In this document: positions 13 to 41,353 of the stretch, in pieces
Numbering within the stretch: position 1 is the first letter of the stretch
Layout of the letters: the number at the start of each line of letters is the position of its first letter
From: a phage
DNA length: 44,578 nucleotides
Reading direction: 5' to 3' (one strand)
Assembly: GCA_026776125.1 (NCBI GenBank)
Contig: GCA_026776125.1_4343.1
Made by a program: the position numbers and the translations under genes
The notes under the pieces: generated by a model
The model's input: only the letters and a program-made list of their open reading frames with translations
The model's database searches: none
What the model was told of the DNA's origin: nothing

Positions 13-30
13 AGGCCCGAAAGGGCCTTA
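13..30. terminator. GC-rich hairpin (ggccc-gaaa-gggcc) flanked by A10 and T-rich run; putative bidirectional terminator
   Basis: Inverted repeat read directly in sequence; sits at 3' end of minus-strand gene 28..999. Confidence 0.45.
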
Positions 31-999
31 TTTATGCGGAACTTTAGGCTTCACTCCGTCCCTACAAAGGGCCAAAATCTCTGGAATTATCTTAGGGTCT
101 GAGGTTAGCATCCACTCCGTGGATCCGTCGAAGCTGCCATAGCCCCACTCATTCGACGCTATTTTGTAAGTGTTATGGAAATACACTTCTAGCATTCGTA
201 TTTTTGCGCCGTTATCGTCGCGATGAATGCCAAGCACTTCGAAACCAAAGGGGGTAGCGTTACGCAGGTGACGTATCCGCTGTTTAGGCCTGTTTGATAT
301 CCCTATCTTCACGAATCGGCCGCATTCACTAAGTAACGCATAGAGGAACCCAGTTTTATTAGGGTCGTACCCGCTAGAGGCACATCCAGGACATCCTTGA
401 TTCTGATGAATGATATCTGCTATTCGCTGGCTAAACTCACCATGGATATCGCAAAGCCGCACCGCTTTGCTATACTGATTCTTATACCCTCCTTCGAAGC
501 GCAAGAACTTCCACTTATCACTCACGGCGTAAATCTGCGAGATGCGTTCCTCCTCTGAGTATGAAGGTCTTCCCGCGCAACTAGGACACCCATGTTCCTT
601 ACTAATTGCGTTAGCTATCAAAGTGTCGAACTCCCCGTGTTCGGGACAGAGCCTACGTACCTTAGAATAGGCGTTTCGATAGCCGTTAGGAAATCCTACA
701 AAACTGTATTGCGGGGCTACCTTAGCTAGTTCCTCTACTACATTGCTCTCAGGTTTTCGCTGTTTGCTTGATGAAGATTCTTTTCCACACCTAGGGCACC
801 CAATACCTTTTTTAATACTAGCGGCCGTTGCCGAGAAAGCCCCATGTTCGCGGCAAAATAGGGTTATCTTACTAAACGCACCTGTATACCCCGCACCATC
901 GTCCAACAACTCGTATTTACCGCCGTGGTTGGCTAAATCAGCTAATATCCTCTCGCGGCGCTCAGGCCATAGTATTTTCCGGCACATAATCAACCTCAA
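28..999 (-). CDS. Homing-endonuclease-like protein: three tandem zinc-ribbon repeats plus C-terminal T5orf172/GIY-YIG-like domain
   Basis: Three ~47-aa repeats each with LC.EHGEF...GCPxC pattern; C-terminal GFLYALLSECGRFVKIGISNRPKQR resembles T5orf172/GIY-YIG-type motif. Confidence 0.5.
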   Translation of the reverse strand: MRLIMCRKILWPERRERILADLANHGGKYELLDDGAGYTGAFSKITLFCREHGAFSATAASIKKGIGCPRCGKESSSSKQRKPESNVVEELAKVAPQYSFVGFPNGYRNAYSKVRRLCPEHGEFDTLIANAISKEHGCPSCAGRPSYSEEERISQIYAVSDKWKFLRFEGGYKNQYSKAVRLCDIHGEFSQRIADIIHQNQGCPGCASSGYDPNKTGFLYALLSECGRFVKIGISNRPKQRIRHLRNATPFGFEVLGIHRDDNGAKIRMLEVYFHNTYKIASNEWGYGSFDGSTEWMLTSDPKIIPEILALCRDGVKPKVPHK

Positions 1000-3411: not shown

Positions 3412-5969
3412 TCCTGCACTACACGCGAAACGCTGAAGGCGCTTTCGACCGTACAAAACACGTCGGGATGCCGATAGATTTTGTCGTTAACCATATTCCT
3501 GACGGCGTGCCTGTGCGCGTCTATCTCGGTGAGATTGGCGATGATACTGATGTTACAGACGACTTCAATGCGCTCAAAGACGAGGACGCCGTGTACCACA
3601 TTATCGAGGGTGCAGGCGGTGGTATCGGCGACGCTATCGGTAGTGTATTCAGTTTCATCCTTAAGCCAATTGCCAAATTGTTCGGGCTAGACACAGCAGC
3701 TAACGCTAATTATTCCGCTACCAACAATCAGGCTACGTCGCCTAACAACAGTCTTACTGACCGCTCGAACAAGCCACGTCCTTATGAACGTTCTTATGAC
3801 ATCTGCGGGACAGTGCAGACTATACCCAATGACCTGATGCAGACGTATAAGGTGTTTAACGCCACGGGGGCGCTTATTGAATATGCGTACTATGACGCCG
3901 GTCGAGGGTATCTGCATATTGAGGAAGACGGTGTAACTGAGGCAGATACCCGAATCAGCGAGATAACTGGCTCGTCGGCGGCGGTGTATTCCCCTTACAC
4001 TTCGCCGAATAACACCAGCACACCACAATTGCATATCGGCGGCCCTATAGACCAGAAATTGTACGTTACATTTAAAAACGCCGATGTCGATGGCGCTGTT
4101 CTTCCCGCCCCTAATGATATCGCTATAGACGTGCAGGACTACACTGTCCAGCGGCAGGGAACAACCGGCGTTGTAGTAGGCGATGACGCTGGTTTCGATG
4201 AGTTTTTGGCGGTCGGGGACCTGGCATACTTCGATAACGTATATGCAGATACAACCCCAGGGTCTTTGGGTAATGAGGTTAACCTGGACGGGAGGTACAC
4301 GGTTCTTTCTGTTAGTGAAACGACCCTTATTGTGGACGTCAGTACAAATCAATCAATATGGAACCAGCTAGGAACATCTGTATGGTTTATAGGTGAAGAG
4401 GGCAACCATCTTATAGGCCCGGCGGATACTTACGCGGCTTCCCTCTCTGGATGGGCGTACATCACCCGTGGAACCGTCGACCGTGTTGTAGCCAATGTGG
4501 CTGCCAGCAACGGCATGTACAAATACAACGGCGACTATAACCGCGCTTCAGTGACAGTCGAACTGCAATACCAGATGGTAGATGAATTGAAACAGCCTGT
4601 AGGTGACATATTTACCGTACGAGGAACCGTAACAGGCCGGAACACGGATTACACAGGGATTACTCTTTACGGAAGTTTACCAACTGCTTCCAGATTCCGC
4701 GCCCGTATGCGTCGTGTTTCGGACACCGATAAAGATTTTGAAGGTACTGTTAGCGACGAGGTTACTTTCACTAATCTATATGGGCAGTCGCTGGACACAA
4801 CCCCCCACTACGGCAACCGTACTACCGTACACTGCGCCCGTAAACAAACCCCACGTGCAGCCGAGGTGTCCGAACCGGAACTGCGCATGATTGCAACCGA
4901 GATGTGCTACAAATACTTAGGTAACGGCGTATTCGATACGGTAATGACACCGAACACTCAGGCCGTGCAGTCGCTAATCAGGCTGGCGCGCGACCCGGCG
5001 GTGGGTAATCTGGAGCTGACAACAGCAAACATGGACAAGTTACTTGCGGTGCAGGAAGAGATTGAGTCATATTTTGGCAGTGAATTAGCCGGGCAGTTCT
5101 GCTACACATTCGACGACTACGACACAACCATGCAAGACATCGTTCAGACCATCGCGGAAGCCGTGTTTTGTACGGCATACCGTAAAGGTGCTGATATTAT
5201 GCTGCGATTCGACCGTCCTGTTGCGGGGCCTGAGATGGTTTTCACCCACCGCAGCAAAACGACCGGTACGGAGAAATGGACGCGCACGTTCAACGATTCG
5301 ACAACCTACGATAGCCTGTCGTTCTCGTACATTGACCCGGATACAAACGTACAGGAGACGATTTATATCCCGGAAGAACTCGGCGCGAACACCGAGGAGT
5401 ACGAATCGAAGGGTGTACGTAACTATCAGCAAGCGTACTGGCTGGCGTGGCGTCGCTACCAGCGCAACACGTTAAGTAAAGTTGTCGTAGAGTTCGAAGC
5501 TACCGAAGAAGGCGCTCTCGCTACTCCCGGCGGCGTAATCAGTGTGGTTAAAGGCTCGCGTATCGCGCCGCAGGATGGTTATGTTGTTGCCGTCAATGGC
5601 CTTACGCTGACGCTGTCTCAGCCTGTTACGTTTACTCCTGGTGATGACCATTCCATCATTCTTAAGAAGCGCGACGGCTCTGTGCAGAGTATTTCTGTTA
5701 TCAAAGGAAGCCACGACCGCGAAGTGATTATGCTCTCCGCGCCGGAGGAGGCAATCTACACGGGGAATAGTGCGCTAAAAACTGAGTTTTCATTCGGCAA
5801 CGAAGCAAGGCATAATGCTCAGAAGATAGTTGTTTCTTCAATCGACCCCAGCGACGACCGCACGGTCAAGATTACGGGCTACAACTATGATGACGGATTC
5901 TATAAATACGACGGCGTCGCGCCATACGGCAGCGGTTTCTCCGACGGATTCAGCAATGGTTTTAATTAA
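3402..5969 (+). CDS. Putative tail tip / central tail fibre protein
   Basis: 855-aa ORF (TTG at 3402; an internal ATG about 60 nt downstream is an alternative start); large S/T/G-rich structural-looking protein. Confidence 0.35.
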   Translation: MAIILHYTRNAEGAFDRTKHVGMPIDFVVNHIPDGVPVRVYLGEIGDDTDVTDDFNALKDEDAVYHIIEGAGGGIGDAIGSVFSFILKPIAKLFGLDTAANANYSATNNQATSPNNSLTDRSNKPRPYERSYDICGTVQTIPNDLMQTYKVFNATGALIEYAYYDAGRGYLHIEEDGVTEADTRISEITGSSAAVYSPYTSPNNTSTPQLHIGGPIDQKLYVTFKNADVDGAVLPAPNDIAIDVQDYTVQRQGTTGVVVGDDAGFDEFLAVGDLAYFDNVYADTTPGSLGNEVNLDGRYTVLSVSETTLIVDVSTNQSIWNQLGTSVWFIGEEGNHLIGPADTYAASLSGWAYITRGTVDRVVANVAASNGMYKYNGDYNRASVTVELQYQMVDELKQPVGDIFTVRGTVTGRNTDYTGITLYGSLPTASRFRARMRRVSDTDKDFEGTVSDEVTFTNLYGQSLDTTPHYGNRTTVHCARKQTPRAAEVSEPELRMIATEMCYKYLGNGVFDTVMTPNTQAVQSLIRLARDPAVGNLELTTANMDKLLAVQEEIESYFGSELAGQFCYTFDDYDTTMQDIVQTIAEAVFCTAYRKGADIMLRFDRPVAGPEMVFTHRSKTTGTEKWTRTFNDSTTYDSLSFSYIDPDTNVQETIYIPEELGANTEEYESKGVRNYQQAYWLAWRRYQRNTLSKVVVEFEATEEGALATPGGVISVVKGSRIAPQDGYVVAVNGLTLTLSQPVTFTPGDDHSIILKKRDGSVQSISVIKGSHDREVIMLSAPEEAIYTGNSALKTEFSFGNEARHNAQKIVVSSIDPSDDRTVKITGYNYDDGFYKYDGVAPYGSGFSDGFSNGFN

Positions 5970-5981
5970 AGAGGACTCTAT

Positions 5982-7967
5982 ATGTCAAGCGGATGCGGTG
6001 ACGTTTTAAGCCTGGCGGATTTACAAACCGCCAAGAAACACCAAATTTTTGAAGCCGAGGTTATCACCGGTAAATCCGGCGGGGTTGCTGGTGGCGCCGA
6101 TATTGATTACGCGACCAACCCTGTTACCGGGCAGACCCAGAAGACGCTTCCTGCTGTGTTGCGTGATGCCGGTTTTTCTCCCGTATCGTGGGACTTTTCC
6201 ACCGGCGGTACGTTAACAGTTAATGACCGCGACAAAGTGGTGTATGACCCCGTAAGCAAGACGTGGTACTCATATGCGGGTACGTTGCCGGTTGTTGTTC
6301 CCGCGAGTTTTAATCCAGTCGGTAACGCTAACTGGAAGCCGCAGACAGACCCAAATTTGCGTAATGATTTGGCGTCAAGTACCGCCGGTTTAGGGGCTTC
6401 ACTGGTGTCTTTTTCCAACGGTAACACCGTTGAAACATTATCTGACGCGGAAGGTGCCAAGAACATAGGCAGTGGCGAAAGGAGTTTGCTTGCACGTAAC
6501 AATGATATTAAGCATTCTGGCGACTTTTCTACCCTTCAAGCCGCGGTAGATGCGTCGTTAACTAAAAACGACTTAATTGTTTCTCCGGGTGAGTATACAG
6601 AAGCAATCACTCTGGGTAGTAAGCAGATAAAAGGTGTAGGTGGTGCTGCAATATTAAAACCATCGGCAAACTATGCAAATACTGTACAGGTTAATTTATC
6701 CACCCCGCACTGGCAGTTTCGACACAGCGGTGGTTTTGCCGTAGATGGTACAGGTACAACTGGGGCCGTAGGTATTAGTTTTGACCCGTCAGACCAATAT
6801 TCCGGACGTCATAATTTTAGTGATTTATACATCCACAACATCAACAAGGCCATTCAGAAGCCTTCCGGGAACATCGGCAATACGTGGAGAAGTATTGGGG
6901 TATCTACGTGTGATTGGGGGTATTACGCGATTAGTGGCTCGAAGATGCATTGCGGGGCCGATACCCTCTACAATATCCACTTCGACGGCATCTCCACCTA
7001 TGCCGTCTACCTAAACGGTACTGTCGATAACGGTGGGATAGGCGGATGGTGGCTTAAAGACTCCATTATTGAGGCTTCCGGAGGCGGCGGGATATACTTA
7101 AAAAGCAAATCGGGTGACTGTCCTCCATCTCCATGCGGGGTATCCAATGTATGGATGGAAGCTATTGCAACATCATCGGCTGTTCAGGTAGATGGCGTGG
7201 CGCAAAAACCGCGAGTTCTCAAGTTGGTAGACACCGCGATATTCTTTGCTGAGTATTCTTATCTCAACAACATCGAGCTATCCAACTCCAACTTAGTAAC
7301 TTATGGTTGCCGTTTTGACAACGCTGATGGTAATCAGGATATTGTAGTGGATGCACAAAGCACCATTGTAGCCCACGATGTGTATTTAAACGGCAGTTCT
7401 GGAAAGGACGTTATTGTAGAGTCTGTCGCGTCGCAATCCGCAACGGTAGCCACTACAAACTTGTCTCTACGAGGAAATTTAACAAGGGGACGAGTGTTTA
7501 ATACGCCGACGGGGAATAAGTTAAAAGCTATCACATTTGACTCAGGTAGCCATAGTTTTTCTGGTAGCGGTACCGTTAACGGTTCGACTGTATCTGACGG
7601 ACTTCACGCCGCTACATGTACCGAATTTTCATTCCCTGGGTCCGGTTTATATGAAATGGTAGCGTCAAGAACGACACTTACATCCGGTAGATGGTACGTG
7701 TGGGGTGTCAACTCTCGCCTCCAATCAGGAACAGCAGATGTGAGTATAACGTTAGGTATTACTATGGGTAGCGTTTATACTAAGTCTGGTGAGTGGATTA
7801 GCACATTTGGGGTGGGTAAAGCTTCCGCTAACGGTATTGTAGGTCTGTACGTCTCTACTGGGGGAGGTTCAGGTGCTGTTATCAGATTTAGTGACTTCTT
7901 CATCGCTGAGTTTACGACGCAGGCTCAGGCTTTAGCTTTCGCTAACTCCCGAATGTCGTTGGCTTAA
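5982..7967 (+). CDS. Putative tail fibre / tailspike (receptor-binding) protein
   Basis: 661-aa ORF, last of tail block, Gly/Ser/Thr/Asn-rich repeats suggestive of beta-helix or fibre; followed by terminator. Confidence 0.45.
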   Translation: MSSGCGDVLSLADLQTAKKHQIFEAEVITGKSGGVAGGADIDYATNPVTGQTQKTLPAVLRDAGFSPVSWDFSTGGTLTVNDRDKVVYDPVSKTWYSYAGTLPVVVPASFNPVGNANWKPQTDPNLRNDLASSTAGLGASLVSFSNGNTVETLSDAEGAKNIGSGERSLLARNNDIKHSGDFSTLQAAVDASLTKNDLIVSPGEYTEAITLGSKQIKGVGGAAILKPSANYANTVQVNLSTPHWQFRHSGGFAVDGTGTTGAVGISFDPSDQYSGRHNFSDLYIHNINKAIQKPSGNIGNTWRSIGVSTCDWGYYAISGSKMHCGADTLYNIHFDGISTYAVYLNGTVDNGGIGGWWLKDSIIEASGGGGIYLKSKSGDCPPSPCGVSNVWMEAIATSSAVQVDGVAQKPRVLKLVDTAIFFAEYSYLNNIELSNSNLVTYGCRFDNADGNQDIVVDAQSTIVAHDVYLNGSSGKDVIVESVASQSATVATTNLSLRGNLTRGRVFNTPTGNKLKAITFDSGSHSFSGSGTVNGSTVSDGLHAATCTEFSFPGSGLYEMVASRTTLTSGRWYVWGVNSRLQSGTADVSITLGITMGSVYTKSGEWISTFGVGKASANGIVGLYVSTGGGSGAVIRFSDFFIAEFTTQAQALAFANSRMSLA

Positions 7968-10955: not shown

Positions 10956-11258
10956 TTAACTATAATAGTTCGCTATTAGGTCGTCAATCTGTTTAAACGA
11001 ACCTACGACAAAAACATTTGCACCACGTCTACGCATCCGCTCATGCTCTCGTAACTGGTGCGGGTCTGGCTTCGTGTTTTCGTCTTTCTTAACCTCGACA
11101 AACCAGATTATGCCGTCGGGGAGAATTACCAGCAGGTCGGGCGCTCCGTTTCTACCCTCATACACTATCTTACGAACGAGGCCACCAATGGCCTCGAATC
11201 GGTCTTTTGCGTATTTCTGTATTTTGCCCTCAGGCGTACGCATCCACACACCCCTCAC
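10956..11258 (-). CDS. VRR-NUC domain nuclease (PD-(D/E)xK fold)
   Basis: GAPDLLVILPDG...IIWFVEVKK pattern typical of VRR-NUC. Confidence 0.6.
   Translation of the reverse strand: MRGVWMRTPEGKIQKYAKDRFEAIGGLVRKIVYEGRNGAPDLLVILPDGIIWFVEVKKDENTKPDPHQLREHERMRRRGANVFVVGSFKQIDDLIANYYS
10959..10987 (-). promoter_or_regulatory. Sigma70-like promoter, class I (TTGACG-N17-TATAGT on minus strand)
   Basis: Hexamers with 17-bp spacer read on minus strand; near-identical copies at 14527 and 17467. Confidence 0.45.
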
Positions 11259-14526: not shown

Positions 14527-14555
14527 ACTATAATAGCTAACTATTCAGGTGTCAA
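14527..14555 (-). promoter_or_regulatory. Sigma70-like promoter, class I (TTGACA-N17-TATAGT)
   Basis: Near-identical to elements at 10959 and 17467; about 65 nt upstream of gene start at 14458. Confidence 0.45.
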
Positions 14556-17210: not shown

Positions 17211-17438
17211 TTACTCACCGTCGCCTTCAGTAAGGCTATCGTCTATTAGTTCAAATTTACCGTTTGAGTGTTGAATAGCTTCTTGCCCGCAATGGTCACA
17301 GACAACAAGTTTATCGAACCCATCAAACTCATCCCCTACTACGCAAGAAAGTACAAATTTATGTTTTGTGCACACTTCTTGCGGAGCGCCGAAAATTGCT
17401 CGAAAACCTTTAGCTATGGCCCCAGTGATTGTGTTCAT
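17211..17438 (-). CDS. Small Cys-containing protein, possible zinc-binding (75 aa)
   Basis: Cys pairs C..C and CDHCG; first gene downstream of promoter at 17467. Confidence 0.4.
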   Translation of the reverse strand: MNTITGAIAKGFRAIFGAPQEVCTKHKFVLSCVVGDEFDGFDKLVVCDHCGQEAIQHSNGKFELIDDSLTEGDGE

Positions 17439-17466
17439 ATCTGCCCCTCTCGTTTGGTATGGGCTA

Positions 17467-17495
17467 ACTATAATAGCGAACTATTCACATGTCAA
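17467..17495 (-). promoter_or_regulatory. Sigma70-like promoter, class I (TTGACA-N17-TATAGT)
   Basis: Hexamers and spacer nearly identical to elements at 10959 and 14527. Confidence 0.5.
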
Positions 17496-17559
17496 TGGGC
17501 TTTTCTAAAATAATTAATATGGTACTATTCACATATCAACTGACTAAGGAGTAATTGAC

Positions 17560-17775
17560 ATGCAACCATCTGAACTAGGCATCCGTGTAGAACAACGCCG
17601 CAAAGAACTCGGCATCTCCCAGCGCCGTTTGGCGGCCCTGACCGGCGTTTCCCAGGGCGCGATTAACCAACTGGCACTTGGAGTAACTCAGGACGTCCGC
17701 CCGGCAACGCTGTTCAAACTGGCGGAAGTTCTGGAAGTAGACGCCAAGTGGCTGGCGTTAGGTGAAGGGGCTTAA
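17560..17775 (+). CDS. XRE-family (Cro/CI-type) helix-turn-helix transcriptional regulator
   Basis: LGISQRRLAALTGVSQGAINQLALG HTH signature; RBS AAGGAG upstream. Confidence 0.75.
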   Translation: MQPSELGIRVEQRRKELGISQRRLAALTGVSQGAINQLALGVTQDVRPATLFKLAEVLEVDAKWLALGEGA

Positions 17776-17790
17776 AGCCCCTTTCTTTTT
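17764..17790. terminator. Hairpin terminator (aggggct-taa-agcccct + T-run), likely bidirectional
   Basis: Stem-loop plus TTTCTTTTT overlapping stop of 17560..17775 and 3' end of 17793..20051. Confidence 0.55.
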
Positions 17791-17792
17791 AC

Positions 17793-20051
17793 CTATTCCA
17801 AATCCTCCTCTGTCACCACCAGCATCTCATTTGGTTCGTATAGTGTCTTCGGCCTTAATCTATCCCCTATTCTTTCGGGTATACGATATGTTCTCGGTAC
17901 TACTTCGCCGTTAGCATCGCAACCAAGCATTAGTTCTCCATCTTTCAACATTTTATCAAGATGGGTGTTAGTCACAGAGAAGTCACCGGAACGAGCCACT
18001 ATCTGCTGCTGAGTAAAACCGCGACCTGTGTCATCTGACTGTTGCAGGTCTTCCAGTGCCGAAAGTATTGACTCCTTCCTTACTTCATCCCTGCCGCGTT
18101 TAACTTCTTCCTTTACTTTTTGCTTACCTTCTTTCGTCAACCCTTCTTCCCGCTCTTTCTCCTCGTCAGTTTTGAACGGCTCGAAACCCCACGGCATCAA
18201 CACAAGCGCCTTGTGTGGTTCAGGCAGGTCCAGGTTTACGATTGTGCCGTATTCCTCTGTGCTACCCAGGAACTCAACCGCTCGGTATTCTTTAGGCGGC
18301 GGCGCTTCACGGAACTGTACCGACTCCAGCACCATGCCAACCGTCTTCTGCTGAGGCCCGTGCTTGAATTTCGAGTGATATACGTTTATCTGACGGTCGG
18401 TTGCACGTTCGATTGTCAGTTCCACGTCAACACCCGCATACAGCGCCCCACTGCCGCGTGCTTTCTTTCCACCCTTCGGCGTATGGTGGACAACGCCTAC
18501 TGCGGCTTTAGTTGCATCGCGTACTTCTTTCAGAATGGCGATAACTTTACCCATGCCGATTGCTGTTGATGAACTGTTCTCGTCGAACTTATCAATCGTC
18601 AGGGCCAGCGTCTGGTTAAGGGTGTCGAAGGCAACCATGCCAATAGGTTCATCCCCTGCGGTTTCGCGCATCCTGCGGATTAGAGCTGGAATTTTTTTAT
18701 CACCATGCGTAGCGAGTATTTCGCCCGTATCGATGACATGTACATAATCTTTACCTTCCTCGCCATATTTAGCCGCGAGTGCATCAATACGTGTTCGTGT
18801 AGCTGCACCACCCTCGCCGTCAATATAGAAATGGTGGCAACGTTGGGTGTCAGCCCCCGCAAACCGGTACCCGGCGGCGCTCAGGTACATCATCCCCAGC
18901 GTATAGAATGATTTGTACGTGCCGGATTCCCCGACAATATCCCAGATACAATCCGACGGCATGTACCCCTCAACGACGAAATCAGCCTTTACCGGTTCTG
19001 GTAACTCGTCCTCCTCTGAGTCCTCGTCGTCTTCCAGGTCGTCGAGGCTGCATGAGACAGATTCACGCGCCCCCCAACCGATGGCCTCTGCGACTTCACT
19101 GAACGGCAGCCCGGTCGCATCGCACGCGTACTTCCACACCTCTTTCGGTGACAGGCCTTCTGTCGCCGTAATGTCTGTGTCGTGAATCATGGTTACGTTT
19201 GGCGCTTCATACCCCTCGCGCGGGAAGCACAGCAGGAAGTCGTCCGGGCGCGGTGTCGGGTCGCTGTAGTTTTCGGCATGTTCCGGTGTGGCTGGCATCT
19301 TAAGGCCGCGCGGCGTCATGACGCCGCCGTACTCAAACGCCAGTGCTTCAAACGCGTCTGTAAACGCGGTGCGCAGTTCTTCCGGTATCTGGTAATCCGA
19401 TGCGCTGCTAACGTCAACGGCTGGGATGCCTTCCAGTAACTCGTTCGGGTCGATCAGGTCGTTGCGGCGCGACCAGATAACGGTAGCGCCGACCGGCGGC
19501 AGGTACATCGGCTGCGACAGAGTGAACCCGCTGCGGTCCGCACCCATGCCTTTGAAGAAGTGCTCCAGCAACCCATGACGAACACGGATGATGTCACCAC
19601 CCTCCACCGGACGGGCCAGTGGCATTACGACGCGAAAGCGCGGTGACTCATCAGTATGTGATGCCGTGGTATAGAGGCACATGGCCCAGCGGCTGCGCTT
19701 AACCAGGCGCACCGCTTCCTGATACTCTTCCGGTGTTGTGCTGTCGAAATCCAGATAGGCCAGCGACGATTTGCTTACAGACGCATCGCAGCGGTAGAAA
19801 AAACCTTTACGCGCTTGCTTAAAGTCTCCAGTTTCCGGGTCTTTTACGGTGCTGTGCGTTGAGTCGCACGCGGCGGTGATATAACCGGGCGCGGTCTTAG
19901 GGTTAATCCCGTCGCGAACGGCATCGAGCGGCTGGATTAACTCTTTCAGGTCGTCCAGTGTTGCCGTGTGTGCGGTTCTGACATTTATATCCTTTTTTCC
20001 CGCCCGCGCGTTGCGGCGTGACCACGAGTAGGATAAAATTACATCGGACAT
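17793..20051 (-). CDS. Primase-helicase: N-terminal primase-polymerase-like region plus RecA/DnaB-like ATPase
   Basis: LAYLDFDS (DxD-type motif) in N-terminal half; Walker A GESGTYKSF and Walker B-like VGVVHHTPKGG in C-terminal half. Confidence 0.6.
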   Translation of the reverse strand: MSDVILSYSWSRRNARAGKKDINVRTAHTATLDDLKELIQPLDAVRDGINPKTAPGYITAACDSTHSTVKDPETGDFKQARKGFFYRCDASVSKSSLAYLDFDSTTPEEYQEAVRLVKRSRWAMCLYTTASHTDESPRFRVVMPLARPVEGGDIIRVRHGLLEHFFKGMGADRSGFTLSQPMYLPPVGATVIWSRRNDLIDPNELLEGIPAVDVSSASDYQIPEELRTAFTDAFEALAFEYGGVMTPRGLKMPATPEHAENYSDPTPRPDDFLLCFPREGYEAPNVTMIHDTDITATEGLSPKEVWKYACDATGLPFSEVAEAIGWGARESVSCSLDDLEDDEDSEEDELPEPVKADFVVEGYMPSDCIWDIVGESGTYKSFYTLGMMYLSAAGYRFAGADTQRCHHFYIDGEGGAATRTRIDALAAKYGEEGKDYVHVIDTGEILATHGDKKIPALIRRMRETAGDEPIGMVAFDTLNQTLALTIDKFDENSSSTAIGMGKVIAILKEVRDATKAAVGVVHHTPKGGKKARGSGALYAGVDVELTIERATDRQINVYHSKFKHGPQQKTVGMVLESVQFREAPPPKEYRAVEFLGSTEEYGTIVNLDLPEPHKALVLMPWGFEPFKTDEEKEREEGLTKEGKQKVKEEVKRGRDEVRKESILSALEDLQQSDDTGRGFTQQQIVARSGDFSVTNTHLDKMLKDGELMLGCDANGEVVPRTYRIPERIGDRLRPKTLYEPNEMLVVTEEDLE

Positions 20052-20108: not shown

Positions 20109-20342
20109 TTATTCCAGGTCTTCTAAAGTGGCTGTCACCCCACGAACTTCGGCAACAGCACTATATCTCCCGCCAACATTTTTCACGACACCAGATTTAA
20201 CCAGCACCTTCAACGACCCTTCAATGATGGCGGAACTATAGTACCTAAAATAACTGCGGCGCAAGTCCATAACGCTGCACGACCCTTTTTTACGTGTTAC
20301 CGAAACAACCGCCGTAAATACGCGTGACTGGAACTCGGTCAT
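20109..20342 (-). CDS. Hypothetical protein (77 aa)
   Basis: ORF with ATGA overlap to upstream HTH gene. Confidence 0.4.
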   Translation of the reverse strand: MTEFQSRVFTAVVSVTRKKGSCSVMDLRRSYFRYYSSAIIEGSLKVLVKSGVVKNVGGRYSAVAEVRGVTATLEDLE

Positions 20343-20533
20343 TTTACATTCTCCTTAATCCACGCTTCTACTTTCTCCGGGTCGAACGTACCAGGCTGCC
20401 GGCGGCCCATAATACGGATACAACAATCCGGGAACTTCCCACTCTTTAACCAGTTATTCAGCGTGCGACGAGTAACCCCGATACGCTCAGCTACCTCATT
20501 CTGTGTCATTCTCAAACCCTCATTATCAGTCAA
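20339..20533 (-). CDS. Small HTH DNA-binding protein
   Basis: VAERIGVTRRTLNNWLKSGKFP HTH-like segment; first gene of leftward operon. Confidence 0.5.
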   Translation of the reverse strand: MTDNEGLRMTQNEVAERIGVTRRTLNNWLKSGKFPDCCIRIMGRRQPGTFDPEKVEAWIKENVK

Positions 20534-20857
20534 CGAAACTTAGTATACATTGCGAATAATGGGAAATCAAACATAATCGCACCTATTGACATTATGAAAA
20601 TCTTCGTTTAAGGTGCTTTTGTATCTTAGTTACTTTGATTCCTGTTCACCTTGTAAAACCGCTTAAAACGCAGCTGCGCGCAGCGCAAGCAAAGTGTTAA
20701 GCGAAAGTTTACTGAACATAAGAATTATCGTAACTTTCCTTCCTAAGTATCTCCGGTTGCCCTGGGCAAGCTCTATTCTCATCGGCAGCATATCTCTTAA
20801 GTATCTGATTTTCTTAATGTGCCGTAGATTCGCAACCGTAAAAATGTAACGATTATT

Positions 20858-20883
20858 GGGCAGGCTTAAGCCTGCCCTTTAGT
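20858..20883. terminator. Perfect 10-bp-stem hairpin (gggcaggctt/aagcctgccc) in divergent intergenic region
   Basis: Palindrome read in sequence; weak T-run after it. Confidence 0.4.
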
Positions 20884-20949
20884 TACCAAGTAATAAGAAT
20901 AAAGGCACAACCCTCCCCGAAGAATCACAACGGCAACGTAACTATTCTC

Positions 20950-20978
20950 TTGCACACCCCAACATAATAGGTTACTAT
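20950..20978 (+). promoter_or_regulatory. Promoter-like element, class II (TTGCAC-N17-TACTAT)
   Basis: Shared with 21751(+), 32092(-), 41325(-); followed by conserved leader CGAAACGAGA and RBS before 21013. Confidence 0.45.
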
Positions 20979-21012
20979 TCACTTATCGAAACGAGACATA
21001 AGGAATTTAGAA

Positions 21013-21231
21013 ATGAACAAAGCGACCGCAAGCGTAGTTTCCGCAATCAAACAAGTTTACGGCATCGATATTTCAGAGCGCGTAATTATCGGGAACAAAC
21101 GCAACTTCTTTACGTTCGGCACCGACGGTATGGATGGAAACGATTTTAACAACGTACAACGTTTCGCTATCGGTAAGGGGCTTCGTAATGAGCCCGCGGG
21201 TTACAAGAAATTCGCTATCTACTTTAAATAA
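21013..21231 (+). CDS. Hypothetical early protein (72 aa)
   Basis: ORF with RBS AAGGAA, downstream of class II promoter. Confidence 0.45.
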   Translation: MNKATASVVSAIKQVYGIDISERVIIGNKRNFFTFGTDGMDGNDFNNVQRFAIGKGLRNEPAGYKKFAIYFK

Positions 21232-21444: not shown

Positions 21445-21602
21445 GAGAAGCATTCGAACGGTGGGCCGTCGTCGATGGTCTGCCGGTTAATAAGGGTTCG
21501 AAGAAAGAGTACCTGAACGTTAAGACGCGTCTTGCGTGGCGGGCGTGGAAAGCTGGTGCGCAATATCGGGCCGGTGTAACAGGCGGTGTAACAGGTCAAT
21601 AG
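21441..21602 (+). CDS. Hypothetical small protein (53 aa), not in ORF track
   Basis: Hand-translated; ATGA overlap with upstream ORF. Confidence 0.3.
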   Translation: MREAFERWAVVDGLPVNKGSKKEYLNVKTRLAWRAWKAGAQYRAGVTGGVTGQ

Positions 21603-21750
21603 GTTACTATTTGTCTTTGTGTCTTACGCTGCTACACAGCAGCGTACAACTTTAACTTAGTGTCGTCAAAAGGCGACACTTCCATAAGACACTGTTGGGG
21701 CAGGGATAAAGTGTCCCCAGTTAGCGACACTAAGCACCAATAAAATTTAC

Positions 21751-21779
21751 TTGCACACTAGGATAGAATAGACTACTAT
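21751..21779 (+). promoter_or_regulatory. Promoter-like element, class II (TTGCAC-N17-TACTAT)
   Basis: Same architecture as 20950; followed by leader CACGAACGAGAGGAG. Confidence 0.45.
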
Positions 21780-21810
21780 TCATTTACACGAACGAGAGGA
21801 GATACGGAAG

Positions 21811-29506: not shown

Positions 29507-29532
29507 AAGGCCCCGCTAGGGGCCTTAGTTTT
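29507..29532. terminator. Bidirectional hairpin terminator (aaggcccc-gcta-ggggcctt)
   Basis: 8-bp stem between convergent genes (portal + and 29531..30184 -). Confidence 0.6.
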
Positions 29533-30184
29533 AACGTATATTAGCCGCACATTTACGCACAACCCGAGGTATCGCCTCTTTCAGTTCACCCCATGTATTA
29601 ACGGCCTCCATGTCAAGAAGCGTCACCAGAGCTTTCTGGATGTCACTTCGCAACTGATTGGTCTTCGCATCCTGAGAGTCCCATGTATCGAAACCCGTTA
29701 CGTCGCGGATATCTACGGATTCCTTTACCGCTTTAGCCACCTGTATGAAGTGTCCACTGTGGCCAATTCTTCCCTCCGTGCGCTCGATCATTCGACTAAC
29801 GGCAGCGTTAAGCTCGACAAAGCTCACCGCGCCAATGTTTCGTAGTTCTACCTGCCGTTGTGTGATAAAGCGGTCGATAACGAGGAAATGGAAATAGGCG
29901 CTGTATTGCTCAGCAATATATACTGCCAGATGGAGACATGCAAAGGTGCGACCGTTTCGGCCTTTCGTCGCCCTTATGGCATTCTCGATTCCGAGTTGTT
30001 TTTCGCATTCCTCCTTGAAAATCTTGAAGCCATCCGTTGCCATGACCTGGCGAAGCTCTCTGGCCCCCATGCCGTTGTCTAAACGCCAACGGTTCATCTG
30101 GTCAACCAGCTCGTTTACGTTAATAAAGTTTTCACGGTCAAAAGTGATTTCTCCATAAGGGAACTCTAATGTTTGCAGTTTCAT
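29531..30184 (-). CDS. KilA-N-like domain protein (moron on opposite strand)
   Basis: N-terminal region ending GRTFACLHLAVYIAEQYSAYF resembles KilA-N domain signature; unknown C-terminal domain. Confidence 0.4.
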   Translation of the reverse strand: MKLQTLEFPYGEITFDRENFINVNELVDQMNRWRLDNGMGARELRQVMATDGFKIFKEECEKQLGIENAIRATKGRNGRTFACLHLAVYIAEQYSAYFHFLVIDRFITQRQVELRNIGAVSFVELNAAVSRMIERTEGRIGHSGHFIQVAKAVKESVDIRDVTGFDTWDSQDAKTNQLRSDIQKALVTLLDMEAVNTWGELKEAIPRVVRKCAANIR

Positions 30185-30210: not shown

Positions 30211-30240
30211 TTTAAATTCTACATTTGAATGTAGAATTTA
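30211..30240. promoter_or_regulatory. Perfect 13-bp inverted repeat with 4-bp spacer (TTAAATTCTACAT-TTGA-ATGTAGAATTTAA); putative operator
   Basis: Verified by reverse-complementing; lies 27-56 nt upstream of start of 29531..30184. Confidence 0.5.
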
Positions 30241-31834: not shown

Positions 31835-31862
31835 AAGGCCCCATTATGGGGCCTTAGTTTTC
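31835..31862. terminator. Bidirectional hairpin terminator (aaggcccca-tta-tggggcctt)
   Basis: 9-bp stem between convergent genes. Confidence 0.55.
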
Positions 31863-32064
31863 AACGGAATCTTGTGTTTAAATCCTGCTCATGGACAACC
31901 CTCAGAACAGTGTCATAATCCCCGTATCTTCCAGGTTCAAATATATCTAATGCCTTGTAAGCAGACATTGCGTCAGGGAAAACCTGCAGAACCTTTTTAA
32001 CCCGGCACAAGTCACCGTCGAACTCTTCATCGAACTCTTGAACTACTTCGCAAATTGCATACAT
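31861..32064 (-). CDS. Hypothetical acidic protein (67 aa), opposite-strand insert
   Basis: ORF with RBS AGGAGG, driven by class II promoter element at 32092. Confidence 0.45.
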   Translation of the reverse strand: MYAICEVVQEFDEEFDGDLCRVKKVLQVFPDAMSAYKALDIFEPGRYGDYDTVLRVVHEQDLNTRFR

Positions 32065-32091
32065 TTTTCACCTCCTGTTTAAGTTAACTGA

Positions 32092-32120
32092 ATAGTACCC
32101 TATTATATTGGGGTGTGCAA
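32092..32120 (-). promoter_or_regulatory. Promoter-like element, class II (TTGCAC-N17-TACTAT on minus strand)
   Basis: Near-identical to 41325(-) and 20950(+). Confidence 0.5.
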
Positions 32121-32826: not shown

Positions 32827-32935
32827 TGACGCGGACGAGGATTTAGCTATCGACGTTCAGAACGCCGAATGCGTACGGCAACTGAGACTGAAAGTGTTCA
32901 TGTTGCAGGATTACGTGAGGAATATTCTGGAATAG
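32672..32935 (+). CDS. o-spanin (Rz1-like lipoprotein) overlapping Rz in +1 frame
   Basis: Signal peptide with lipobox LASC, proline-rich mature region (SPAPSPTPIPSPDT); starts inside Rz and extends past it. Confidence 0.6.
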   Translation: MKSLSTLKRLVAACALLTMLASCSSPAPSPTPIPSPDTTMMQPPCKLAPPSSDADEDLAIDVQNAECVRQLRLKVFMLQDYVRNILE

Positions 32936-33017: not shown

Positions 33018-33719
33018 ATGAATCGTTTTTTACGTTATCCGTTCCAGGAAGAAGCTGGAGCAGAAGATAAAGCTGGTGGCGGTGACGCTCCTAAAATGTT
33101 CACCGCTGAAGAAGTTCAGGCGCTGATTGAGAAAGAAGTTGCCGGGCTTAAGGCCAATCAGGAAGCATTGCTGGCGGAGAAGAAAGAAGCCGCCCGTAAA
33201 GCAAAAGAGGCCGAAGAAGAACGGCAGCGCGCGCACCAGGAGGCGTTAAAAGCCGCTGGTAAGATGGATGAGTTCGAAAAGACGATTCGTAGCCAGTATG
33301 ACCCGGTGTTAGCCGAGAAAGACGGTCGCATCTCCAGAATGGCAGAGCGTATCCTCGGCAGCGAACGTAAAGCGGTGCTAGGCTCTTTCGCGGGTGACTT
33401 TATTACCCCAGAAGCAGTGGACATTCTTGCGCCGTTCGTTAAGACTGAGTTCGAAGGCGATGATGTGGTTACTAAGTTTGTTGGTGCAGACGGTAACGTA
33501 ATCACGACTGACCCGGAACAGTTCCGCAAATACCTGCGCGAACACAAGGCGTTTTCGCATTTGATCAAAGCAAATGCAGCTTCCGGCGGCGGGGCTTCCG
33601 GTAGCAAAGGCGGCGGGGCCGCACCAGCGTTTAAAGACATGAGTGAAGCAGAGCGTTTAGCCCTGTATAAATCGAACCCTGCCGAATTTGAACGGCAACT
33701 TAAAGCCCTGAGGAAATAA
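33018..33719 (+). CDS. Putative scaffolding protein
   Basis: Charged, alanine-rich coiled-coil-like sequence directly upstream of major capsid gene; ATG at 33018 preferred over ORF-track start 32964. Confidence 0.55.
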   Translation: MNRFLRYPFQEEAGAEDKAGGGDAPKMFTAEEVQALIEKEVAGLKANQEALLAEKKEAARKAKEAEEERQRAHQEALKAAGKMDEFEKTIRSQYDPVLAEKDGRISRMAERILGSERKAVLGSFAGDFITPEAVDILAPFVKTEFEGDDVVTKFVGADGNVITTDPEQFRKYLREHKAFSHLIKANAASGGGASGSKGGGAAPAFKDMSEAERLALYKSNPAEFERQLKALRK

Positions 33720-41283: not shown

Positions 41284-41324
41284 GGTGTAGCTCCTGTTTG
41301 GGATAACATCGTTGGTGTAAGTGA

Positions 41325-41353
41325 ATAGTACACTATTATATTGGGGTGTGCAA
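41325..41353 (-). promoter_or_regulatory. Promoter-like element, class II (TTGCAC-N17-TACTAT on minus strand)
   Basis: Near-identical to 32092 copy; about 40 nt upstream of 41283 start. Confidence 0.5.

Follow-up and report, generated by a model that had tools for sequence, protein, structure and literature searches.

A Cro-type protein and a promoter-overlapping palindrome family that it may read in a virulent Kagunavirus genome

The stretch of phage DNA considered here, contig GCA_026776125.1_4343.1 of assembly GCA_026776125.1 with 44,578 nucleotides (the window), is essentially a complete Kagunavirus genome (Guernseyvirinae; virulent siphovirus of Escherichia coli), and in its replication region it carries a lone plus-strand gene, xre, at 17560-17775. 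The 71-residue product, XRE, belongs to the HTH_3 Cro/CI family of helix-turn-helix (HTH) proteins, and the repeats upstream of its gene are two members of a genome-wide family of sequences with a 14-bp palindromic core, AATAG-N4-CTATT, hereafter the box. Nearly all copies of the box are associated with promoters, and each of these overlaps the -35, the spacer or the -10 of a sigma-70-like promoter. With a probability of roughly 40%, XRE is a Cro analogue lacking a CI partner that would bind the boxes, turn down early and middle promoters and regulate its own synthesis. As a gene, xre adds one more ordinary member to a known family; of greater interest is the family of operator-like sequences that overlap promoters across the genome, and the proposed network built on it is plausible and is undescribed in the literature searched.

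Allowing no more than one mismatch, the box occurs 12 times in the window, with eight perfect copies, where 1.10 would be expected, and not one of 100 shuffles reached 12. AATAG-N4-CTATT is the most over-represented palindrome of 5-N-5 form in the window and likewise in phage Jersey. Counted with the -10 hexamer as -12 to -7, its placement defines two classes of promoter. In class A, on the minus strand, TTGAC(A/G) is followed after 4 nt by a box that runs into ATAGT (TTGACA-17-TATAGT), so that the box lies at about -25 to -12; the members are at 10964-10977 (in TTGACG-17-TATAGT), at 14532-14545 (in TTGACA-17-TATAGT, upstream of the genes for single-stranded DNA-binding protein, SSB, and DNA polymerase, with orthologues at 32930 in Jersey and 31191 in phage K1G) and at 17472-17485 next to xre. 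In class B the box comes 10 nt after TTGCAC (TTGCAC-17-TACTAT) and lies at about -19 to -6; on the plus strand such boxes are at 20966-20979, upstream of the gene that starts at 21013, and at 21767-21780, and on the minus strand at 32091-32104, upstream of an open reading frame (ORF) of 67 codons (31861-32064), and at 41324-41337, upstream of a gene resembling those for superinfection immunity. Two more promoters have a near-box, at 1012 and 24162, over their -10 or -35, and beyond the two promoters at xre the box covers the core of at least seven others that serve non-structural operons. Because the two registers are 6 bp apart, the box is separate from the hexamers contacted by RNA polymerase, not an element of the polymerase's own, and its position over core promoters is the classic one for a repressor operator.

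Some members of the family have features of their own. A perfect box, AATAGGTTACTATT at 21598-21611, shares its 14-mer with the box at 20966. It falls at the 3' end of a short reading frame, with no recognisable promoter, and a tandem GGTGTAACAGG repeat precedes it (region 21570-21611). The near-box at 1012-1025 contains the -10 of a minus-strand promoter, TTGACC-17-TAGTAT, that precedes the gene (28-999, minus strand) for a homing-endonuclease-like protein of 323 residues with CapR and T5orf172/MUG113 domains. Many box promoters are then followed by a shared leader and ribosome-binding module, (A)AACGAGAGGAG (17447-17460, 20990-21005, 21790-21800 and others), which suggests that cassettes of promoter, operator and leader were duplicated as units.

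The two boxes at xre sit within a direct repeat, 17471-17495 and 17515-17539, identical at 21 of 25 positions with a spacing of 44 bp, inside which the 11-mer ACTATTCACAT recurs exactly (17480-17490 and 17524-17534; there is no third exact copy). The tandem promoter-like elements that the initial annotation described ahead of the gene are therefore real as a repeat; they are not peculiar to xre, the genome having about 12 copies. Copy 1, AATAGCGAACTATT (17472-17485), has perfect palindromic arms and occupies the spacer and -10 of a leftward promoter, P_L (17467-17495, minus strand; TTGACA at 17495-17490, 17 nt, TATAGT at 17472-17467), which matches the consensus at 11 of 12 positions, just as that annotation had placed a minus-strand promoter over the first element. 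P_L is predicted to drive the gene at 17211-17438 and with it the leftward recombination and replication operon; it has sister promoters at 14555-14527 and 10987-10959 and orthologues in Jersey (TTGCAT-17-TATAGT) and in SE1, and its -35 is invariant among relatives.

Copy 2, AATATGGTACTATT (17516-17529), has one mismatch and covers the -10 of the promoter predicted for xre itself, P_xre, whose core is an extended -10, TGgTACTAT (17520-17528, plus strand), with class-B geometry. The hexamer TACTAT within it (17523-17528) lines up with the -10 of that class, with TG at 17520-17521 before it and a similar leader after it, and shares the geometry of the TTGCAC-17-TACTAT promoters at 20950, 21751, 32120 (minus) and 41353 (minus); at the same place Jersey has TTGCGT-17-TACTAT and SE1 has TTGTAC-18-TATATT, and the third position of TGnTACTAT is the single base of the block that varies among relatives. 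Because of the class-B geometry, the extended -10, the counterparts in Jersey and SE1 and the near-invariance, TGnTACTAT is taken as the probable xre promoter, with a start near 17535. The other candidate, TTCACA-16-TAAAAT (17484-17511, plus strand; 10 of 12 matches), has hypervariable last two -35 positions, with an indel; its A/T block could belong to P_L as an UP-like element, and TAAAATAATT is also found upstream of the SE1 leftward promoter. The ribosome-binding site, AAGGAG (17547-17552), lies 7 nt before the ATG, and AACTAAGGAG is kept in Kagunavirus, Jersey and SE1.

Two direct repeats 44 bp apart, within an A/T-rich gap that has replication genes alongside, could also be taken for iterons or DnaA-type boxes of a replication origin beside the helicase-primase gene, the more so as CTATTCACA matches the DnaA box, generally given as TTWTNCACA, at eight of nine positions. 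Such an origin is hardly credible here: the box stands at about 12 promoters genome-wide, the CACA part is unconserved in copy 1 and in Jersey, and the cumulative GC-skew minimum falls at about 21 kb, away from the repeats. A gene-free divergent region of 480 bp at 20534-21012, between the helicase-primase operon and a rightward cluster of small genes, has several GC-rich hairpins together with that cumulative GC-skew minimum, and is a candidate origin or control region.

Divergence per site, computed over 35 distinct Kagunavirus sequences, is 0.028 for the whole region upstream of xre against 0.21 at the synonymous sites of the gene. The box arms vary at 0-0.003, copy 2 at 0.002 and the -35 of P_L at 0; the N4 centre of copy 1 reaches 0.12, with six variants, and the two bases after CTATTCA, in the CACAT tail of copy 1, reach 0.49 with a 1-nt indel besides, the most variable spot of the region. 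Because the tail of copy 1 is hypervariable, the exact identity of the 11-mer in the two repeats is in part coincidence, and what the repeats conserve is the palindrome followed by CA. All the orthologous sites in K1G bear boxes, their centres differing, and Jersey has AATAG-N4-CTATT boxes at orthologous promoters. In the SE1-like Salmonella phages the box family is missing, the orthologous SSB promoter included, and SE1 has no alternative enriched palindrome family. Among 2.9 million IMG/VR contigs the class-A pattern of promoter plus box was confined to contigs of this phage group, 40-45 kb long. Next to one arm, the adjoining outer base depends on the genus (TG-AATAG in Kagunavirus, with G at -1 in seven of nine boxes; T at -1 in all Jersey boxes), possibly as a genus-specific fine tuning of the operator.

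This pattern of fixed arms and a drifting centre bears on whether any protein other than polymerase need be invoked. The box could be an intrinsic part of a duplicated promoter cassette (A/T-rich spacer, TATAAT/ATTATA symmetry and shared leader), read by host RNA polymerase alone and with no relation to XRE. Its flanks do form hexamers like a -10 (TATAAT-AG...CT-ATTATAGT), the cassette copies share about 21 bp and the common leader AACGAGAGGAG, and copy 2 read on the minus strand resembles a decayed duplicate of P_L (TTGATA-18-AATTAT, 9 of 12). Such an origin for the whole pattern is nevertheless distinctly unlikely, as the arm distal to the -10 is invariant though it is placed differently in the two classes (-25 to -21 in one, -19 to -15 in the other), the N4 centre drifts freely with the arms unchanged, and the orthologous SE1 promoters retain -35, -10 and the CTATT-TAT part and have lost the other arm.

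The small HTH gene running against the surrounding replication genes, as first annotated, is confirmed by its ORF (ATG start), its ribosome-binding site and its domain. XRE is a single-domain protein that matches Pfam HTH_3 (PF01381) over residues 11-65 with 49.7 bits (E = 3.9e-13; cutoff 23), and its nearest solved relatives in PDB are 434 Cro and the N-terminal domain of 434 repressor (E about 1e-5, 39% identity over about 60 residues). An AlphaFold2 single-sequence model (pLDDT 81) is compact and all-helical, with helices at 5-17, 21-28, 32-39 and 48-68, and gives Foldseek TM scores of 0.58-0.69 against HipB, 434 Cro and repressor, C proteins, SinR and P22 c2. By domain and by fold XRE is thus a member of the HTH_3 Cro/CI family. 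As all 38 related loci compared keep the ORF intact and pN/pS is about 0.09 (pS 0.21, pN 0.019), xre is a real gene under strong selection. A 4-kb query around it matched 445 phage records, Escherichia phages Bas73 and XY1 at the top with 94% identity; the orthologous proteins are 93-100% identical within Kagunavirus, about 48% in Jerseyvirus and about 40% in the SE1-like phages, and the gene keeps a fixed position in the core replication region of all three genera. Its ORF is intact yet unannotated in the K1G RefSeq record (33428-33640) and in Bas73 (6922-7137), where it is identical and where a 31-codon minus-strand ORF inside it has been annotated instead. The names given to orthologues in databases ('transcriptional repressor', 'Cro', 'DicA', 'DNA-binding protein') are homology labels only.

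A protein of this family would be expected to bind a dyad operator as a dimer, and the box offers a candidate 14-bp dyad. Since the class-A pattern is confined to IMG/VR contigs of Guernseyvirinae size, a binder encoded by the phage is favoured, and we infer that XRE is that binder. Its recognition helix, SQGAINQL, is invariant within Kagunavirus, as are the boxes, and the promoter of xre bears a weaker copy of the box, as is usual for repressors that regulate their own synthesis. With 14 bp arranged as 5+4+5 and half-sites 9 bp apart, the box fits operators of the 434 type (434 OR/OL). A scan for inverted repeats in the three upstream regions found no private XRE operator common to the three clades; only the box, promoter hexamers and the ribosome-binding site are shared.

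Several observations weigh against this assignment. Jersey XRE is only 48% identical and has changes at four of the usual specificity positions of helix 3 (SQSLITHL against SQGAINQL), and the box is identical there; the SE1-like phages retain XRE, with the Jersey-like helix TQSAISHL, yet lack the box family; and presence of the box tracks a module made up of an HTH_17 protein, hyp77 and a helicase-primase of the Kagunavirus/Jerseyvirus type. Furthermore, the literature searched contains no experiment on the XRE protein or the box for any member of the group. As the phylogenetic profile comprises only three clades in the collections searched (Kagunavirus, Jerseyvirus and SE1-like), it cannot settle which protein binds the box. 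The helicase-primase of the SE1-like phages, only 27-28% identical, is encoded directly downstream of xre on the same strand, with HTH_17 and hyp77 missing; relative to the other two genera, this whole module has been replaced and inverted.

The protein to be weighed against XRE as reader of the box is chiefly that HTH_17 protein (excisionase/MerR-like, 56 residues; PHROG 66), encoded at 20339-20509 on the minus strand as the first gene of the helicase-primase operon. The boxes would then be operators of another phage protein, xre would be one gene of its regulon and XRE would have its target elsewhere, at a local operator, another phage site or in host DNA. HTH_17 is 83-89% identical between Kagunavirus and Jerseyvirus, the two genera with boxes, and is absent from the SE1-like phages, which have none, whereas the recognition helix of XRE fails to follow the presence of the box; its own promoter, TTGATT(20570)-17-TATACT, is the only promoter of a non-structural operon without a box. 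Against this, the putative recognition helix of HTH_17 varies strongly within Kagunavirus (TRRTLNNW, TRQTINNW and, in K1G, SPMTLNRW, with RR replaced by PM) with no change in the boxes; lone winged helices of the excisionase/MerR-like kind generally bind direct repeats, or bind as monomers or filaments, not perfect 14-bp dyads; a repressor made early and directed at the promoters of DNA polymerase and SSB would be an awkward design; and the contrast in distribution depends on only three clades. A reading with another phage protein, chiefly HTH_17, as the binder is unlikely.

Other candidates for the binder were set aside. The KilA-N protein (gene at 29531-30184) is excluded: K1G lacks it, as do all but three Escherichia-phage records, yet these phages have the boxes. 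The confinement of the promoter-plus-box pattern to this phage group in IMG/VR speaks against a host transcription factor, and we know of no E. coli or Salmonella operator that fits, the sites for OxyR, MntR, TrpR, NrdR and DnaA differing in spacing or key bases. The palindrome at 30211-30240, which the initial annotation had offered as a further target for XRE, occurs once only, without half-sites in the vicinity of xre; it overlaps the KilA-N promoter, and nothing ties it to XRE.

The KilA-N gene and this palindrome deserve mention in their own right. The gene, on the minus strand and with the PHROG label 'amidase', has 335 records in Salmonella Jersey-like phages and three in Escherichia phages, so that the window carries a Jersey-type accessory gene rare in its own genus. 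A perfect palindrome of 26-30 bp, AAATTCTACATT-tg-AATGTAGAATTT at 30214-30239, spans its minus-strand promoter (TTGATT-18-TAGAAT), and in the same place Jersey (5565-5590) has a perfect palindrome of a different sequence, AAATGGTATATAt-ag-aTATATACCATTT; the pair has the look of a candidate single-copy operator that covaries between the genera.

If XRE does read the boxes, the course of events that we infer, including repression by binding, the transcription starts and an antisense effect, would be as follows. XRE would be made once infection has started, and its dimers would fill the perfect boxes first, turning down P_L and the other box promoters served by host RNA polymerase. At higher levels its own imperfect box, copy 2, would be filled, with negative autoregulation of the weak rightward P_xre. 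Lacking a CI partner, the arrangement would serve as a one-way damper or timer and would not form a bistable switch.

The 3' end of xre could add to the timing. An intrinsic terminator (17764-17792, plus strand; stem GAAGGGGCT/AGCCCCTTT followed by a T-run), annotated as such in phage Shashou and alike in layout in Jersey, overlaps the stop codon of xre and ends 1 nt before the stop codon of the helicase-primase gene. The hairpin (17764-17784) folds on both strands, at -19.4 and -17.9 kcal/mol for 51-nt segments; the T-run is on the plus strand only (CTTTTTAC), and the minus strand continues CACCTAACG with no U-tract, so that the terminator is not the bidirectional one it was first taken to be. 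It would keep xre transcripts from running antisense into the helicase-primase gene. Leftward transcripts of the early, box-less helicase-primase operon meet no U-tract and may cross xre in antisense and delay its expression. Rho-dependent termination of such antisense RNA within xre was considered and dropped, the RNA having a C/G ratio of 1.05 and no rut-like bias. Elsewhere in the window terminator-like sequences that are nearly identical to one another (AAAACTAAGGCCCC...) end five transcription units, at 7966, 13803, 29519, 31848 and 38855.

The order of expression that can be compared with this comes from RNA-seq of a relative, phage vB_Eco_K1B4, in which the orthologue of xre (gene _004) is classed as 'middle' and the other HTH gene (_008), the HTH_17 counterpart, as 'early' (PMC12645636). 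The middle class counts in favour of XRE as the binder and the early class in favour of HTH_17; the classes come from a coarse time course, a further point that tempers the case for XRE (PMC12645636), and the supplements carry no expression table. The genome-reduction study PMC9825161 was discarded as a source on essentiality, as it covers a Skatevirus, which is outside this group. That xre is a timing regulator of the lytic cycle, as first suggested, fares well in its lytic part: the Cro/XRE type of the protein, the virulent genome and the 'middle' class in K1B4 (PMC12645636) make a lytic regulator the most reasonable reading.

A stronger form of the Cro-like proposal would put XRE, as master repressor, in charge of operators at about 12 promoters across the genome of strictly virulent Guernseyvirinae, placed in two or three fixed registers; it would shut all early and middle operons, be timed by a weak autoregulated promoter and by antisense read-through from the single early operon that lacks a box, and have the XREs of Kagunavirus and Jerseyvirus reading one operator with different helices. 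In that full form the proposal is doubtful.

A different sphere of action for XRE would be the host or competing phages, with the protein as an antitoxin-like decoy against an abortive-infection toxin or as a repressor of resident prophages or superinfecting phages. The antitoxins HipB and HigA are among its structural and sequence neighbours, and xre is monocistronic with its own terminator, in the manner of a moron. A main role of this kind is decidedly improbable given that xre is universally conserved at a fixed core replication position in three genera, that XRE is most similar to 434 Cro and repressor, that a box covers the gene's own promoter, and that no toxin gene or co-directional neighbour adjoins it.

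Returning to the Cro-like reading, by analogy XRE would work most like 434 or lambda Cro or Mu Ner. It has the same length as 434 Cro (71 residues) and a single HTH_3 domain, 434 Cro being the closest solved relative by sequence, and its candidate operator is likewise a 14-bp dyad with copies overlapping divergent early promoters. In contrast to 434, the window has no CI partner, integrase or tripartite OR; the box is unrelated to the 434 operator, ACAA-N6-TTGT, and stands at about 12 promoters, where 434 has its operators in two regions; and in Kagunavirus xre is monocistronic and convergent with the next operon. Cro acts at PL and PR in lambdoid phages to turn these promoters down, and the functional analogy with lambda Cro and Mu Ner lies in a small early or middle repressor proposed to turn down divergent early promoters together with its own synthesis. 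Lambda Cro folds differently and is not an HTH_3 protein, and both it and Ner come from temperate or transposing phages with a competing repressor, whereas the phage of the window is strictly virulent. In the SE1-like clade xre heads an operon carrying the helicase-primase gene, divergent from the recombination operon, which is the position of cro and a feature met only in that clade; in the window the terminator and the convergent gene directly after xre mean that it is not an operon head.

The likeness to a genetic switch raised by the initial annotation is not borne out. A partner repressor is lacking, and the repeats, as two of about 12 copies of one promoter-associated palindrome, are no operator set private to xre. 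With a spacing of 44 bp, the two boxes lie over P_L and the predicted P_xre, and about 10 further sites in the genome carry the box. Where a CI/Cro switch would have its repressor, the divergent neighbour of xre is a protein of 75 residues without an HTH (17211-17438, minus strand), the first gene of the leftward operon; it has no Pfam hit, belongs to a PHROG of unknown function and is swapped for other genes in many relatives at the left end of the alignment. The controller (C) proteins of restriction-modification systems (C.AhdI, C.BclI, C.Esp1396I) resemble XRE in fold class and size (Foldseek TM about 0.6) and are concentration-dependent timers acting through paired dyad operators at their own promoter. 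No restriction endonuclease gene adjoins xre, however, the box is unlike C-boxes, and the boxes are 44 bp apart and have many more copies. As the required neighbours are absent, XRE is neither a restriction-modification controller nor the antitoxin of a toxin-antitoxin pair.

The surroundings of xre are those of a virulent phage. It is the sole plus-strand gene between 17211-17438 and the convergent gene for the replicative helicase-primase (17793-20051, minus strand; AAA_25 domain, annotated in Bas73 and K1G), and the minus-strand replication and recombination genes on its flanks also include those for a DUF2800/PD-(D/E)XK exonuclease and an Enc34-type SSB. The absence of an integrase or CI-like repressor, as first noted, stands: no integrase, recombinase or S24/CI domain was found in the roughly 38 window ORFs scanned, and the annotations of Jersey and K1G list none either. 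The gene at 17211-17438 does not encode a repressor. The word 'excisionase' on the HTH_17 protein comes solely from the name of its PHROG family, a recent paper on a Kagunavirus reports that a repressor gene is absent, and the window has no tRNA or known RNA element (Rfam).

Phages of the Kagunavirus and Jerseyvirus groups rank among those isolated most frequently for therapy or biocontrol of E. coli and Salmonella, and a gene label such as 'repressor' or 'Cro' regularly prompts the question whether some temperate potential is hidden in them. Because xre is a conserved core gene with neither a CI nor an integrase partner, it is no sign of lysogeny. If the Cro-like reading is true, one 14-bp operator on about a dozen promoters of the host polymerase would be a simple regulatory code, one that would explain the order of transcription in a small virulent siphovirus without a polymerase of its own and would supply a ready set of co-regulated promoters for synthetic biology. 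Were it true that the XREs of Kagunavirus and Jerseyvirus share an operator despite their different helices, they would be a useful case for the study of HTH_3 specificity.

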